Sequence record: NC_070985.1
Strand: one strand, 5' to 3'
Source of the DNA: Escherichia phage O18-011
DNA: 64,000 bases
Shown: positions 1,980 through 39,848 of the stretch, one piece after another
How the letters are laid out: each line of letters starts with the position of its first letter
Numbering within the stretch: the first letter of the stretch is position 1
The notes under the pieces: model-generated
Database searches by the model: none
The model's input: the letters and a program-made list of their open reading frames with translations, nothing else
Told to the model about the DNA's origin: nothing
Position numbers and translations under genes: made by a program

Positions 1980-2402
1980 ATGCCATTACCAGCTAGACAC
2001 CAAAACCGTTTCTTAGTTCTCAAGTGGGATGATATCGAAATGAATCTCACTGAACATGAACTGGATTTGTTCCATGAGCTTTTGTCAGAGATTCGCTCTG
2101 GTATTCCTGAACGTCAGTATGTAGTTATCAGCGATAAACACCATCAAGAGTTTGAAGAAGCTTGGGGTATGAAGTTAGCTTACATCCAGAGAGCTATCAG
2201 AGAAAGAGAAGAGGTTGCTAACCAAAGAGTTGTGGCTCATCTAGTACGAGAGCAACCTCGTGAAGCTAGGGCTAACCATGCACCACCTCCACCTACTCCT
2301 CGGATAGTTGTTAACGGGGCGGTTAGGGCTTACAGTTATGAAGCTACCGTGTTAGATGTGATAGAAGATAACCAAGCATTTACAGATTTACTTTACCAAT
2401 AA
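1980..2402 (+). CDS. hypothetical protein
   Basis: ORF track; starts 1 nt after upstream stop. Confidence 0.5.
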   Translation: MPLPARHQNRFLVLKWDDIEMNLTEHELDLFHELLSEIRSGIPERQYVVISDKHHQEFEEAWGMKLAYIQRAIREREEVANQRVVAHLVREQPREARANHAPPPPTPRIVVNGAVRAYSYEATVLDVIEDNQAFTDLLYQ

Positions 2403-2418
2403 TTTAAAGGAGCATAAA

Positions 2419-4221
2419 ATGAGCAACCCGGACGCTCTCCCATTTTTGACAGAGATGACTGTCGCTGATATAATCTCTAAGCAAGCAAAGCACGGAGTGA
2501 GTTTCAACCGAAGAAATGCTCGGTGGTATGTTCACCTCCTTAAAGAGATTATTGTTAATATTGACAAAGAACTGATTCCTCTCTTACCTAAGATGAGATT
2601 AGATGGCTCTACTTATATGAAGCCATTTAAGAAGTCTGGAGCTTTACAGAAGTGGCCTCAAACATATTGTGATAGGGTTGGACTTAAGAGAGAAGACATT
2701 GGTGGAGCATTCACCTGTGTAGAGTACGTAGACTTTGACCCATCGAAAGATGCCCGAGTTAAAGAAGCCCTTATGGATGAGGGTTTTCTTCCTCCAGAGT
2801 TTAACATATCAAAGAAACCTTGGAATACTTTTGAAATCAAGAAAGATATGCGAAAGTACGGAACATACCAAGCATGGTATTCAGCTTGGATGCGAGGTAA
2901 TGCTAAACAGAAGCAGACAGCCGAGATGGTTGACGCTGATATTAGAAAGTTCTTAGAGAAGCATTTTCGGTTTAAAACTAAGAACTACATGAAGGCTTAT
3001 GTATTTGGTTTAGGTTTAAATCCTAACCGACGTAGACCTATCACTTTTGATGAGATTAAGATAGCACTAGCTACCTCAAACAAGTGGCCTACAGCTCCTA
3101 CAAACCTCGAGGAGACTCTTGAAGAAGGGTTAGGGGGTGAGCTAGGGAGTGTCGGAAGTTTGCTTAAGAGACGCGTTGTAGCGGCTCACAGGCTAGGTCT
3201 TATCAGTGGACTCATAGCAAAGGAACGCGAAGATGGTAAACTTTCGGCAGAAGCTAACAGCTGCGCTACGCCGACTTTTCGATTCAAACATCGTATCGTG
3301 GTTAATATTCCCTCCCGTGGTTTGTTTGGTCATGAGTGTCGCAGTTTGTTTGAATCTGACTATAACTCAGATAGTGATCACTCTCGTCCTTTCATTATTA
3401 CTAACGTTGTTCCTGATGGTTGTTATATACGAAAAGGTACTAACGTAATTTACGAGAAAGGTAAGCCGGGGAAGAAAGACAAACCTGTAGGTGCTTACAA
3501 ATATTACATACCCGCTGGTAAAGAGGTATTCTTAGGGTATGATGGTTCTGGATTAGAATTGCGTATGCTCGCACACTACCTCATTAAAGAGTGTAGGGAT
3601 ATGCTTGCTGAAGCAATTGAAGAGAACAATCCAGCTAAGAAAGCTCTGGCAGAACGTGGTTTAGCTTCTGCTATTATGTATCGTGATATTCTCCTTGAAG
3701 GTGATATCCACTCCCACAACCAGAAACTTGCTGGTCTTCCTACTCGTGACAACGCTAAGACGTTAAACAACATGCGAGCACGTTTCTTGGCAGAGAACCC
3801 ATGTATTGCAATCCTCATTGATCGTATGACAGAGAAAGCTGCTCAAGGATACTTGATTGGTGTTGATGGTCGTAAGATTACAATGAGACGAGATTCCACT
3901 GGTAAGGTTATGGTTCATAAAGCACTTAACACTCTCCTGCAATGTGCTGGTGCTGTTGTTATGAAATATGCTATGATGTTCCTTAACAAGTGGATTGAGA
4001 AGGATGGGGTTCGTTGTGCTAAGGTAATTGATATGCATAAACTTCATTGTGCATGTAAAAGTTGGATGGATGAGGGCCAGTTCTCAGTTAATCGTAACGA
4101 TGTACAGAAACTCAAAGAGCACACCGAGCTTTGTGTTAAGAAGGCTGGTGAGTATTTGAACATGGAATGTCCTCTGGCATCTGATTGTCAGATTGGACTT
4201 AACTGGATGCATACACACTAA
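2419..4221 (+). CDS. family-A (T7 gp5-like) DNA polymerase, polymerase domain only
   Basis: Strong SD AAAGGAG; motif A GYDGSGLELRMLAHY; PTRDNAKT and GVDGRK...ALNTLLQCAGA and C-terminal NWMHTH align to T7 DNA polymerase as I recall it; no 3'-5' exonuclease motifs seen. Confidence 0.75.
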   Translation: MSNPDALPFLTEMTVADIISKQAKHGVSFNRRNARWYVHLLKEIIVNIDKELIPLLPKMRLDGSTYMKPFKKSGALQKWPQTYCDRVGLKREDIGGAFTCVEYVDFDPSKDARVKEALMDEGFLPPEFNISKKPWNTFEIKKDMRKYGTYQAWYSAWMRGNAKQKQTAEMVDADIRKFLEKHFRFKTKNYMKAYVFGLGLNPNRRRPITFDEIKIALATSNKWPTAPTNLEETLEEGLGGELGSVGSLLKRRVVAAHRLGLISGLIAKEREDGKLSAEANSCATPTFRFKHRIVVNIPSRGLFGHECRSLFESDYNSDSDHSRPFIITNVVPDGCYIRKGTNVIYEKGKPGKKDKPVGAYKYYIPAGKEVFLGYDGSGLELRMLAHYLIKECRDMLAEAIEENNPAKKALAERGLASAIMYRDILLEGDIHSHNQKLAGLPTRDNAKTLNNMRARFLAENPCIAILIDRMTEKAAQGYLIGVDGRKITMRRDSTGKVMVHKALNTLLQCAGAVVMKYAMMFLNKWIEKDGVRCAKVIDMHKLHCACKSWMDEGQFSVNRNDVQKLKEHTELCVKKAGEYLNMECPLASDCQIGLNWMHTH

Positions 4222-5146: not shown

Positions 5147-5323
5147 ATGACTGCTTCTGAATTAAAAGAAACCCTGTCCACCGAAGAAGGTAAAGCTTTC
5201 TTCCTAACTCAAGTACACTCTATGGGTAAAGATGCCCTTCGCCAAGCAGTTGTTGAGCTTACTGGTGTAGTGATTGACTTGAGTATTGAAAATGAAACAC
5301 TTGAAGCTAAAGTGAATAGTTAA
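5147..5323 (+). CDS. hypothetical small acidic protein (58 aa)
   Basis: SD TAAGGA 6 nt upstream of ATG 5147; followed by terminator. Confidence 0.45.
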   Translation: MTASELKETLSTEEGKAFFLTQVHSMGKDALRQAVVELTGVVIDLSIENETLEAKVNS

Positions 5324-5328
5324 ATAAG

Positions 5329-5356
5329 AAGCTGCCTTAGGGCGGCTTTTCTTGTC
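5329..5356 (+). terminator. rho-independent terminator
   Basis: AAGCTGCC-ttag-GGCGGCTT hairpin then TTCTTGTC. Confidence 0.55.
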
Positions 5357-5370
5357 TAAAGGATTTAGAA

Positions 5371-5508
5371 ATGTTAGAATCTGAATGTGATAAATGTGGT
5401 TCGGTGTCTAAAAGGATAGACACACAATGGTCAGAGATCTTCGAAACACCTGTCCATTTATATAAATGTCCTATTTGTGGTCATGAACACGAGGAGCTAG
5501 GTGAATGA
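5371..5508 (+). CDS. small zinc-ribbon-like protein (45 aa)
   Basis: ATG 5371; two Cys pairs CDKCG...CPICG; stop overlaps next start. Confidence 0.35.
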   Translation: MLESECDKCGSVSKRIDTQWSEIFETPVHLYKCPICGHEHEELGE

Positions 5509-8239: not shown

Positions 8240-9410
<1,171 letters not shown>

Positions 9411-9411
9411 T

Positions 9412-10230
9412 ATGGAAGATGTTAAGCTTCCTGAAGTAGCAATTGTGGACGCGGATGTTCTTCGTTATGAAGTGGGTGCTCTTACTCAGGAGCATCCCTT
9501 TCTTGACACAGGACGTGTTCCAGTTGATTATAATTTCATGATTGAACGACTTCAGTACAAGATAGATACTATCATTGCTCGCTCAGGTTGCAGTAAGGTT
9601 GTGTTCTACTTCAGCGAAGGCGGTAACTTCCGTTTCGATGTTGCTAAGCAGCAAGACTACAAAGCAAATAGACCTCCCGGAGAAAGACCTTTTCACTGGC
9701 AAAATGTCGGTGATTATATTAAAGGTAAATATGAATACATAGATGTATTTGGGAGAGAGGCTGATGATGCACTAGCTGAGAGGCAACGTAGAGATAAGAA
9801 CACTATTATCTGTACTAGAGACAAAGATTTGTTGATAACTCCCGGATGGCATTATCGTTGGGCTTGTGGAGAAAGACAGAAAGAAGTTCCTCCTCACTAT
9901 GTATCTGATTTAGTTTCATGGCAAAACTTCTTCTATCAGATGTTGATTGGAGATGGTACAGATAATATCCCCGGATGTGGAGAACGTAAAGAAGTTATGT
10001 GGGGCGGTAAGCTCCAGCTTCGACGTCAAGGAATAGGAAAGAAAGCAGCAGCTAAGTTATTGGCTGGTGCTACAGACAAGTGGACCATGTATCATATAGT
10101 ACGAATGGAATATTATAAGAAGTTCGATACTGAAGATGAAGAGAAGATGCTTGAGAATGCTCGTCTGCTCTTTGTTGGTCAAACTCCAGAAGACCTGTTC
10201 GACTGGACATGGTTAAACAAATCTTGGTAA
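9412..10230 (+). CDS. 5'-3' exonuclease (FEN / T7 gp6 / T4 RNase H family)
   Basis: ATG 9412 after GGGAGAG; motifs YKANR, EADD, DKDL and GDGTDNIPGCGERK...GIGKKAAAKLL (H3TH region). Confidence 0.7.
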   Translation: MEDVKLPEVAIVDADVLRYEVGALTQEHPFLDTGRVPVDYNFMIERLQYKIDTIIARSGCSKVVFYFSEGGNFRFDVAKQQDYKANRPPGERPFHWQNVGDYIKGKYEYIDVFGREADDALAERQRRDKNTIICTRDKDLLITPGWHYRWACGERQKEVPPHYVSDLVSWQNFFYQMLIGDGTDNIPGCGERKEVMWGGKLQLRRQGIGKKAAAKLLAGATDKWTMYHIVRMEYYKKFDTEDEEKMLENARLLFVGQTPEDLFDWTWLNKSW

Positions 10231-10243
10231 TAAGGATATTATA

Positions 10244-10435
10244 ATGGGTAAATTTGATTATCGTTCATATGATGAAAACTCCTCCAATCGCGAATCTCGA
10301 AAAGAGCAGCGTATTAAATATAGTCATGAATTAGGCAATCGCTATATTAAAGAAAAGCGTGAAAAAGTATCACATCGAGTGGATAAGCGTGTATGGGAAG
10401 AAGACGATATGAGTATAGGTTATGGCGAAGGCTGA
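10244..10435 (+). CDS. hypothetical small basic protein
   Basis: ORF track; SD TAAGGA upstream. Confidence 0.4.
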   Translation: MGKFDYRSYDENSSNRESRKEQRIKYSHELGNRYIKEKREKVSHRVDKRVWEEDDMSIGYGEG

Positions 10436-10823
10436 GAAGACTCGCTGTAGTGGAATGTGGACTGAAGCTCGTTATAACTCTTTCATCAAGTCAGGGATTC
10501 GTTCTCTGACTAGAAAGTGGAAGCCCATGTTCGATGCATTAGCAGACGCCAAGACAGAGCAGAAGATTAACCCAAAGACAGGAAGACTGGCAATGCACTT
10601 TAAGTGTGCCATGTGTGGTTCTGACCACCCTGTAAAGGATATGGCTATTGACCACATAGAGCCTATAGTTCCTCTTGACCATGAAGCAACTTGGGATGAA
10701 ATCATCTCTCGTGCCCTGTGTGAGAAAGAGGGTTTTCAGGTTCTATGTAAAGACCCTTGTCATAAACTAAAAACAAAGATGGAAAATGATGCAAGAAAAC
10801 AATTCAAAAAAGGAAATGAATGA
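10422..10823 (+). CDS. HNH endonuclease (terminase-associated type)
   Basis: CAMCGSDHPVKDMAIDHIEPIV...CKDPCHKLKT (Cys pairs flanking H-N-H core); lies next to, and convergent with, large terminase. Confidence 0.6.
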   Translation: MAKAEKTRCSGMWTEARYNSFIKSGIRSLTRKWKPMFDALADAKTEQKINPKTGRLAMHFKCAMCGSDHPVKDMAIDHIEPIVPLDHEATWDEIISRALCEKEGFQVLCKDPCHKLKTKMENDARKQFKKGNE

Positions 10824-10849
10824 TGATCAAAAATCTACGCAACAAGTGC

Positions 10850-12391
10850 TTAGTAGCTCTGATTCCATCTGCTTACGTTTGCCTCATATAAAGAAGCACT
10901 TCCGTAGCTAACATCATGCTTAGAGCGACCACGATGTGTAACAGAGCACGCTGAATAGCGCATTGCATCCATTAAGTCATCATGTTCTTTAATAATCTTA
11001 CCAACCTTACGGTGATATCTAGCTTTCTCTTCGAATAGCTTAGCGTTAGCGGCTGTGTTAAAGACTTTAAAGCGTCCACTCATCATTCTTTCTCGGATAT
11101 CTGTGATTCCCGGTTCTACAAAGAAGTTCTTTTTACCATCCATTCCAATTTTGTTGTAGAAGGTCTCACTCTGTACGTTAACTCCTGCATTCTTATAGAA
11201 TTGAGCAACAGATGAACCACTACCTTTCTCAGTATTGTCCGCATCATGCGGTAGGATGACAGGAATCCACTGACCACGACCATTAATAGCTGGAGCATGA
11301 TACACTGGAGTAAAGCCACCTTCTTTATATGAGTCGTAAACATAGATAGTATCCGTGTTTGCATCGTAAGCTGTCCAAACAGCAGCAGTTGGGTGATCGA
11401 TACCAATATCAATTGCACAGACACGTTTCCACGTATCAGGAATTTCGAATGGTTCACATTTAATTGTGTCATCCGATACATCATAAATCAAACCACTTCC
11501 TAACAATGGCATACCTTTTGAACGCATCTCTAACTGCCACGCTGGAATACCTTCAGTCATATCTTTTATATCTTGGTCAGTGATGTGTCCACCTAGGTCT
11601 GCATGAGCATCCCACCAAGAAGCATTCTGGAAATATAGAGAACCTGTGCTCTCATCCCCTTCACCTTTCATAAATTTATCTACCAGTTCAGTTAAACCGT
11701 TCTCTGGTGTAGCTGTAATTGTAACTAGACCTTTAGTTGTGAGTGTACGTGTGACGCACTGTGCGAATATAGCCATAGACTCGTATGGATCTTCTTCGTC
11801 TAACCAAATGTAGTCAACTGTTGCACCCATCAATGTGTGTTCACCCTGTTGGGTTGAACGGAATTCTAATGTACTTAAACCGTCAAACTCTCCTCTTTCA
11901 TTTTGATGTTTGATTTGTACGATTTGAAGTTTGTTACCATCTCGTTCTATCGTATCAATGACGATAGCATCACGAGGAATGACACCTGTCCCTAATAAAT
12001 TTGTATCCTTTCCGATAGGTGTACCAAACAATTCCTTTTGCAATACTTTCCTTGTGGAATCCCCTGTAATACCAACTGCCCATGCTAAGATAGGTCTTTT
12101 AAATTTGTATCCTGTCCACCAAGTTGGGTAGCGACCTGTGACATGACAAGCAAACTCGTATGCCTCGCTATAAGATTTACCAACACGGTTCGCTGCACAC
12201 AAGAATCTAAAGCGATGCTTCAATCCTGCTGCATAAAATTTCTTTTGGAAGTCATACGCCTTGAAAGACAAAATCTTATTATACTTCCTCCATTGGTCAC
12301 GCTCTTTCAACATATTCAACAGTGCTTTCTTTTCCTCTACACTAAGATTGTTACCAGTTAGAGCTTCATAAATTTGTTTATCTAATGACAT
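10850..12391 (-). CDS. terminase large subunit
   Basis: 513 aa; Walker A-like AANRVGKS, Walker B-like YIWLDEED, C-terminal nuclease-like region; end of virion gene block. Confidence 0.75.
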   Translation of the reverse strand: MSLDKQIYEALTGNNLSVEEKKALLNMLKERDQWRKYNKILSFKAYDFQKKFYAAGLKHRFRFLCAANRVGKSYSEAYEFACHVTGRYPTWWTGYKFKRPILAWAVGITGDSTRKVLQKELFGTPIGKDTNLLGTGVIPRDAIVIDTIERDGNKLQIVQIKHQNERGEFDGLSTLEFRSTQQGEHTLMGATVDYIWLDEEDPYESMAIFAQCVTRTLTTKGLVTITATPENGLTELVDKFMKGEGDESTGSLYFQNASWWDAHADLGGHITDQDIKDMTEGIPAWQLEMRSKGMPLLGSGLIYDVSDDTIKCEPFEIPDTWKRVCAIDIGIDHPTAAVWTAYDANTDTIYVYDSYKEGGFTPVYHAPAINGRGQWIPVILPHDADNTEKGSGSSVAQFYKNAGVNVQSETFYNKIGMDGKKNFFVEPGITDIRERMMSGRFKVFNTAANAKLFEEKARYHRKVGKIIKEHDDLMDAMRYSACSVTHRGRSKHDVSYGSASLYEANVSRWNQSY

Positions 12392-39430: not shown

Positions 39431-39848
39431 TACTACTTCCTCCAGTTTAAGATAGGAAGGACGCCCGTTTAAGCAGCTCTCCTAAATTTAATGAGAATGA
39501 ACTGTAGCGCCTAAACACTCCCTTCATTGTTTCCTTTCGGATCTAGCAGCATCGGCGATTTTCTGCTGTCTATCAAATTTCCAATTGTTCAGGAACAGAA
39601 ATGCTCCTACTGATGAACATCGGATGGTTTCTCTGTTATAGAAAAGGGAAAGTCCCTTCGTCAAAGAACCTCCCCTCTTCACTTACAAGGGTACACTGCA
39701 AAAGAACATCGTGGCAATAAAACTATAACAACCCTTAGATTGCTAATCAGATGATCTTCGACAGCTCCCTGTTTCCTTTAATTAACTCTTGAATAAATGA
39801 AATCTCCTCTATCACTTCTAAGGTTTGTTAGTTTAACGAGAGGATTCC

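Follow-up and report, generated by a model that had tools for sequence, protein, structure and literature searches.

Escherichia phage O18-011 (NC_070985.1) raises the question of whether a family A DNA polymerase can dispense with its O-helix. In the 64,000-nt stretch of this genome that was analyzed (hereafter the window), a T7-like polymerase open reading frame (ORF) lacks an exonuclease domain, carries three residues, LNN, where the C-terminal half of the O-helix and the O1 region are expected, and has an irregular motif C. A first-pass annotation of the letters offered three explanations: that the phage uses an unusual, non-proofreading polymerase, that the exonuclease is a separate polypeptide encoded upstream, or that the protein is a diverged paralogue with altered activity.

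The ORF has its own strong Shine-Dalgarno sequence, as had been noticed at the outset (Table 1), and DNA_pol_A is the single Pfam family found in it (residues 362–597; 43.7 bits; E 2.4e-11). This score passes the curated cut-off of PF00476 (34.3 bits), and the likeness to family A polymerases is far above chance. A megablast search with the gene matched 96 phage records, 59 of them at 95–99% nucleotide identity, with values of about 97–98% for Kuravirus orthologues such as those of phages 172-1, NJ01, and PE006. Amino acid identity to the 172-1 polymerase is 92.5% across the gapped alignment and, outside two lesions described below, 98–99% to the Kuravirus orthologue. Genes on both sides of the polymerase are collinear with phiEco32 and ev_rybdy3. 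Synteny and identity together point to the syntenic orthologue of phiEco32 gp53 and phage 172-1 ORF67 (614 aa), the family A catalytic subunit, and the window appears to derive from a phiEco32-like coliphage (Kuravirus, Gordonclarkvirinae). No second polymerase gene was found elsewhere in the window, and neither the 600-aa protein nor the proteins encoded on either side of it had an identical record in exact-sequence look-ups.

Table 1. Features of the polymerase locus and of the separate exonuclease gene in the window.
Feature	Coordinates	Strand	Description and basis
Shine-Dalgarno AAGGAG	2407..2412	+	6 nt before ATG; read from sequence
600-aa polymerase ORF	2419..4221	+	ATG start; ORF list, Pfam, nucleotide identity, synteny
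Exon 1	2419..3764	+	Ends ...AAGACGTT; collinear with phiEco32 and ev_rybdy3; 172-1 and T7 gp5 alignments
7-nt remnant AAACAAC	3765..3771	+	Equals first 7 nt of the predicted group I intron in Vi06
Shortened exon 2	3772..4038	+	M452 (MRARF...) to motif C His codon CAT (H540)
Intron 5' end, 27 nt (KLHCACKSW)	4039..4065	+	100% match to nt 1–27 of the predicted PE006 intron
Intron 3' end, ATG	4066..4068	+	Last 3 nt of the predicted PE006-type intron; alignment
Exon 3	4069..4221	+	Catalytic D551-E552 to stop codon; alignments
5'-3' exonuclease gene, phiEco32 gp33 homologue	9412..10230	+	tblastn, 98.5% amino acid identity, 273 positions

The lack of recognizable 3'-5' exonuclease motifs, pointed out in the first-pass annotation, is borne out by the searches. 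Pfam finds no exonuclease family in the ORF, and the alignment to T7 gp5 begins past the exonuclease domain: in HMMER against the PDB, the aligned part of T7 gp5 starts at about residue 289 and extends to the C-terminus, while by eye the start of the ORF resembles T7 gp5 from about residue 205 onward; roughly the first 200 residues of T7 gp5 have no equivalent. When MAFFT was used to align the N-terminus with the T7 exonuclease domain, the result was spurious scatter, and the Pfam and HMMER results were preferred. The RefSeq entry of phiEco32 describes gp53 as lacking both 5'-3' and 3'-5' exonuclease domains, gp74, whose gene precedes that of the polymerase by about 8.5 kb, as a DNA polymerase exonuclease subunit (3'-5'), and gp33, encoded downstream, as a Pol I-like 5'-3' exonuclease, and this split arrangement has been described for Kuravirus (PMC9965538). 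A gp33 homologue is present in the window, and a tblastn search of the window for a gp74 homologue found none. Because the window starts within the PhoH gene and stops at phiEco32 coordinate ~52.7 kb, short of the region with the primase-helicase and gp74, a gp74-type gene would simply fall outside it; such a 3'-5' exonuclease would be encoded in the ~9–13 kb of genome beyond the window. The idea of a separate upstream exonuclease is right for this phage group but already known, and a polymerase ORF that lacks an exonuclease domain is no novelty, having been published as a feature of Kuravirus as a whole. The same features unite the window copy with phiEco32 gp53 and 172-1 ORF67, in which the exonuclease domains are likewise absent and the exonucleases are encoded apart.

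With T7 gp5 (PDB 1T7P and others), the ORF shares the family A palm, fingers, and thumb, and equivalents of D475, R518, K522, and D654/E655 are kept. Motif A was correctly recognized as conserved: GYDGSGLELR (3535–3564) conforms to DxSxxELR, with D375 aligned with the catalytic T7 D475. PTRDNAKT is present as well (residues 441–448, 3739–3762). Motif B, RxxxKxxx(F/Y)xxxYG, retains R443 and K447, beyond which T7 F524–E550 is replaced by LNN, and motif C lacks a contiguous HDE, with KLHCACKSWM between H540 and D551-E552. The O-helix of the intact 172-1 orthologue, PTRDNAKTFIYAFNYGAG, shows the canonical R-K-Y-YG pattern in register with T7 R518, K522, Y526, and Y530, and its contiguous MHDE is in register with T7 H653-D654-E655. 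In the alignment to T7 gp5 that had been proposed as a check of the by-eye comparison, the tyrosines and HDE fall into register in the intact orthologue, whereas in the window copy the former are missing and the latter is interrupted.

The first lesion (site 1) lies in the O-helix. Exon 1 ends 2 nt into the codon after that of T448 and is followed by AAACAAC, which replaces the first 79 nt of exon 2 of the orthologue (O-helix and O1 coding); the sequence then resumes at ATGCGAGCA (3772), the window reading ACGTT + AAACAAC + ATGCGA. The net loss is a 72-nt exon segment equivalent to T7 positions 524–550, including Y526 and Y530. Relative to 172-1 ORF67, the window copy lacks the 27 O-helix/O1 residues FIYAFNYGAGDAKLGSIVGGGADEGSV and has LNN instead, so the earlier description of a shorter LNNMRARF stretch without the tyrosines is accurate. 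A codon walk of the 172-1 exon identifies ATG CGA (the start of MRARF) as the first in-frame ATG past the splice point, and the exon 2 fragment is 98.3% identical to PE006.

The seven nucleotides at site 1 have a counterpart in Salmonella phage Vi06. Gene 5 of this phage reads ...GCTAAGACGTT/AAACAACTAG..., with AAACAAC followed by TAG, and its upstream ORF ends in ...PTRDNAKTLNN and a stop. The Vi06 intron is ~620 nt long and contains an endonuclease ORF; exon 2 restarts at TATCTATGG, where TATCTATGGGTTC encodes (F)IYGFLYG. The window and the Vi06 O-helix intron share the insertion point after ...AAGACGTT and the first 7 nt; they differ in that the window keeps only these 7 nt and has also lost the adjoining 79 nt of exon 2. 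Kuravirus VTCCBPA_211 and phage PKM.Hi.22.6 each have a homologous intron at this site, and a different intron, with an EndoVII-type gene, lies 5 nt downstream of it in Bas93/Bas94, whose CDS is annotated as a join. The residues LNN would accordingly represent read-through of the intron to its first stop, followed by a jump to the first ATG of the next fragment. Within the window, the first intron would be represented by 7 nt only, and since a two-intron parent was not found, the stop after AAACAAC is read from Vi06 only.

The second lesion (site 2) lies in motif C, where 30 extra nucleotides (4039–4068), translated as 10 residues (KLHCACKSWM), separate the CAT codon of H540 (4036–4038) from the GATGAG of D551-E552 (4069–4074); the same 10 residues between H and DE distinguish the window copy from 172-1 ORF67. 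Because HDE is split by this insertion, the first reading of motif C as IDMH with a retained Asp was out of register, and the D of IDMH is not catalytic. PE006 and pEC-N1203-2Af.1 carry at this position a 607-nt insert that contains an endonuclease ORF and reads CAT/AAACTTCATTGTGCATGTAAAAGTTGG TGA ... AACATAA ATG/GATGAG. Both ends of this insert are recognizable in the 30 nt. In relatives, intron nt 1–27 directly precede a TGA stop, and the intron-end ATG follows an in-frame TAA (PE006: ...aacataa/atg/gatgag) and is the start of PE006 CDS 5296..5451, a downstream polymerase fragment. Of the 607-nt insert, 577 nt are missing from the window. The gap opens exactly at the TGA terminating the upstream fragment, closes with the TAA before the ATG, and includes the predicted ribozyme core and the endonuclease gene; with these gone, the remnant would be unable to splice and would be translated.

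The motif C intron is present in at least eight Kuravirus records (including PE006, pEC-N1203-2Af.1, SU7, and ECBP2), and homologues with 65–68% nucleotide identity occur inside gene 5 of many T7-like phages. Insertion after the motif C His codon is shared with the gene 5 introns of phiI and W31/I-TslI that carry HNH endonucleases (Bonocora and Shub 2004, as cited in PMC3428280), the phiI/W31 introns being placed at Pol I site 881, which equals the motif C His (PMC3428280).

The inserts at both sites in relatives are predicted group I introns. Their scores against Rfam Intron_gpI are 43.9 bits for Bas93 (2e-8), 32.1 bits for Vi06 (8e-5), and 28.7 bits for PE006 (8e-4), all below the RF00028 gathering score of 50 bits. 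Each has a 5' exon ending in T (U in RNA) and an intron ending in G. Neither scar in the window retains a ribozyme core, as 7 nt and 30 nt remain, and the window contains no Intron_gpI match; at the gathering threshold, Rfam reports only tRNA and no intron across the whole window. When the remainder of the window was searched for the deleted intron, endonuclease, and O-helix sequences, none turned up.

The junctions themselves appear to be shared by none of ~70–100 related records. In all 30 of the matches listed, a 65-nt query over the site 1 junction is split into two segments that together span 137 nt, and the deletion is therefore in none of them. As an exact pattern, the site 1 deletion junction had no match in IMG/VR, and neither it nor the exon 1/AAACAAC pattern had a match in metagenome contigs; in IMG/VR, the exon 1 + AAACAAC pattern was found in one contig, identical to Vi06. 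A parent genome with both introns, which if inside a Kuravirus would be marked by GCTAAGACGTTAAACAACTAG, was also sought by junction patterns in IMG/VR and metagenome contigs and was not found. Each of the four polymerase breakpoints falls on an ORF-call boundary, either a stop codon or the first ATG; none lies at a splice site, and no microhomology was found at any of them.

A further rearrangement in the window concerns the terminase large subunit. Its CDS (phiEco32 2240..3781, ATG to TAA) is located at 10850..12391 with 98.6% identity, within a gp29-like ORF and adjoining an HNH gene, and at its native site the ribosome-binding site 'ttaaactggaggaagt' abuts the post-stop sequence directly. 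This junction was found in 0 of 71 records. This move resembles a CDS-exact cut-and-paste that is apparently independent of the polymerase edits. Phage LAMP matches window 8300–10850 in one piece. Compared with phiEco32, the window also lacks gp37 and the dNMP kinase gene and has one HNH gene fewer; these differences were considered as unnatural edits and rejected as such, since LAMP, a natural phage, shares them.

The observations, namely that the gene is an orthologue, that it carries two lesions, and that these match intron ends and are unique to the window, are probably best accounted for by a two-intron Kuravirus genome, otherwise natural, that was edited at annotation boundaries, whether in silico or by design. 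The odd O-helix and motif C would then be excision scars at two known group I intron sites and not products of divergence. In the parent, one endonuclease-bearing intron (Vi06/VTCCBPA_211 type) would have followed ...AAGACGTT in the O-helix codons, and a second (PE006/phiI-W31 type) would have lain in motif C, between the codon for His and those for Asp-Glu; both would self-splice from the mRNA to give the canonical ~614-aa enzyme. The excision of each intron would have begun at the stop codon closing the preceding fragment and reached as far as the first in-frame ATG of the following one, and the 600-aa ORF would consequently consist of three gene-caller-style ORF fragments fused head to tail, with a net loss of 72 nt of essential exon and a gain of 10 intron-derived codons between H and DE. 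Cuts at annotation boundaries, together with the CDS-exact relocation of the terminase, indicate non-biological editing; breakpoint geometry makes an artificial origin most likely, and a parent carrying both introns is likewise the most likely source. Two considerations speak against editing: gene-boundary indels also arise naturally in phage mosaics, as the absence of gp37 and dNMP kinase in LAMP illustrates, and the substitutions elsewhere in the gene look natural (98–99% amino acid versus ~97% nucleotide identity).

The natural ~614-aa enzyme would work together with separate 3'-5' (gp74-type) and 5'-3' (gp33-type) exonucleases. Self-splicing in the parent and production of this enzyme are inferred by analogy with intact orthologues and with the phiI/W31 and Pf-WMP3 introns, for which splicing has been published (PMC3428280). 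The 600-aa protein itself keeps motif A, R443/K447, and D551/E552, lacks the C-terminal half of the O-helix and the O1 region, and has an interrupted motif C strand. In family A polymerases such as T7 gp5 and Klenow, dNTP binding and closure of the fingers depend on the equivalents of Y526/Y530 and on the O1 region. By this precedent, the protein should be catalytically dead, with no productive dNTP binding predicted. The structure might accommodate the motif C insertion on its own, because HMMER can pair the intron-derived KSWM-DE with T7 AWVH-DE.

Natural, imprecise loss, in which illegitimate deletion removed the two introns and left a dead polymerase pseudogene still in frame, or, as a variant, a defective sub-population or a mis-assembled consensus, is unlikely but is the strongest competitor. 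Degeneration and loss belong to the life cycle of homing elements. Both lesions occupy genuine intron insertion sites, the reading frame is kept, and the remaining window resembles a natural mosaic Kuravirus. On such an account, the genome would depend on a helper phage or another polymerase, and the window holds no second polymerase gene. The position of the four breakpoints at ORF-call boundaries without microhomology, the disappearance of 72 nt of essential O-helix exon, the absence of either junction from ~70–100 relatives and of any counterpart in IMG/VR or metagenome contigs, and a CDS-exact terminase transplant in the same window, which is hard to obtain by natural recombination, all weigh against it.

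A functional but divergent polymerase, whether non-proofreading or a paralogue, with an LNN linker and a remodelled motif C, is very improbable. The ORF is open and has a strong Shine-Dalgarno sequence, motif A, R443/K447 (T7 R518/K522), and the D-E of motif C, and the HMMER pairing just mentioned would fit a remodelled motif. Yet the supposedly new residues are literal intron nucleotides, the equivalents of T7 Y526/Y530 and the entire O1 region are absent, and the gene is 97–98% identical in nucleotides to intact orthologues beyond the lesions, so the lineage has not diverged. The proposed non-proofreading enzyme is not supported, and neither is the proposed paralogue, the gene being a single syntenic orthologue with two discrete lesions that occur in no related record. 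It is comparably improbable that the sequence is a faithful natural genome of a viable phiEco32-like phage whose sole polymerase gene, through imprecise loss of two introns, is left with no O-helix and an interrupted motif C; its DNA would have to be replicated by a host polymerase, a helper phage, or an unrecognized phage protein. Restoration of a normal enzyme by residual splicing or ribosomal bypass can virtually be dismissed: phages do use self-splicing and, rarely, translational bypassing, and both lesions lie at intron sites, but the intron remnants amount to just 7 nt and 30 nt, with no ribozyme core and no Rfam intron in the window, and the 72 nt of O-helix coding DNA are absent from the whole window, so that no processing could recreate them.

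Edited scars of two introns, the preferred explanation, would mean that this is not a new kind of polymerase. Read literally, the ORF would encode a remarkable enzyme, a family A polymerase that lacks an O-helix; this is not the case here, since its strange motifs appear to be leftover intron nucleotides combined with a deleted exon segment. The first-pass annotation described the anomalies but did not foresee their cause, the remnants of two excised group I introns. Odd or split motifs in phage polymerases should be checked first against known intron and homing-endonuclease insertion sites, and because the window carries both a polymerase fusion and a terminase transplant, caution is warranted for other apparent novelties drawn from it. 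For the phage group itself, the comparison of relatives suggests that Kuravirus polymerase genes are targeted by at least three different predicted group I introns at two catalytic motifs, and this presence of several such introns at the catalytic motifs of one polymerase is modestly interesting, although of a known kind.

The residues at motif C of the window polymerase include a potentially deceptive look-alike. Intron-derived sequence encodes KSWM immediately before DE (window 4051-4074), and HMMER aligns KSWM-DE as motif C, closely mimicking the AWVH-DE of T7 except that M replaces His. The resemblance is a coincidence, by which automated motif calls could be misled. The intron site also marks a change in similarity, between window 3772-4065 and 4066-4217. 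Exon 2 is 98.3% identical to that of the intron-bearing phage PE006; for exon 3 the identity to PE006 is just 91.4%, and by eye this exon is a near match to that of the intron-less phage 172-1. This switch could reflect boundaries of recombination or co-conversion that fell at the homing site in the parent lineage.

Comparison with related phages indicates that the terminase large-subunit coding sequence, which is 98.6-98.8% identical to those of phiEco32 and ev_rybdy3, has been relocated from its native place with ends exactly at its ATG and TAA. It now lies inside a gp29-like ORF, 27 nt past an HNH gene, and this junction is present in 0 of 71 related records. The native location, between the gp6-like and portal genes, corresponds to window 39434/39435, where the terminase ribosome-binding site (RBS) directly adjoins the post-stop sequence. 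The roughly 200-nt segment just upstream of this orphaned RBS had no homologue in the phage collection and no match in the Rfam search; it gave a single weak Vibrio match (E 1e-4), and its folding was unremarkable (z -1.3).

Features located in the window and in related phage polymerase genes
Feature	Sequence	Position	Strand	Remark
89-aa ORF	window	9141-9410		in place of gp35 and gp34 dNMP kinase
Terminase large-subunit CDS	window	10850-12391	-	1542 nt, ATG to TAA; identity to phiEco32, ev_rybdy3
~200-nt segment	window	39435-39637	-	just upstream of orphaned RBS
tRNA gene (one)	window	51182-51254	+	Rfam 57.8 bits
O-helix intron	Vi06 (L005)	919-1541
O-helix intron	VTCCBPA_211 (L012)	~2187-2871
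O-helix intron	PKM.Hi.22.6 (L013)
O-helix-region intron	Bas93 (L004)	~2271-2976

Relative to phiEco32, window 8300-10850 lacks the gp37 macro-domain (Appr-1-p) gene as well as gp35 and the gp34 dNMP kinase, and has one HNH gene fewer than the two of that phage. Phage LAMP (MG673519) has the identical arrangement, in a single contiguous match, and these differences are therefore natural mosaicism. The tRNA gene corresponds in position to the annotated tRNA-Arg of phiEco32 and ev_rybdy3.

Among family A phage polymerases, the stretch encoding the O-helix is a hotspot for introns. A first intron family is inserted at the same point, after ...AAGACGTT, in the T7-like phage Vi06, the Kuravirus VTCCBPA_211 and PKM.Hi.22.6 of the Grimontviridae. 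In Bas93/Bas94 another intron, whose endonuclease is of the EndoVII type, lies 5 nt downstream of that site. Because PMC3428280 gives only sites 674, 676 and 881, insertion at the O-helix site, at about Pol I 759-761, may be under-reported.
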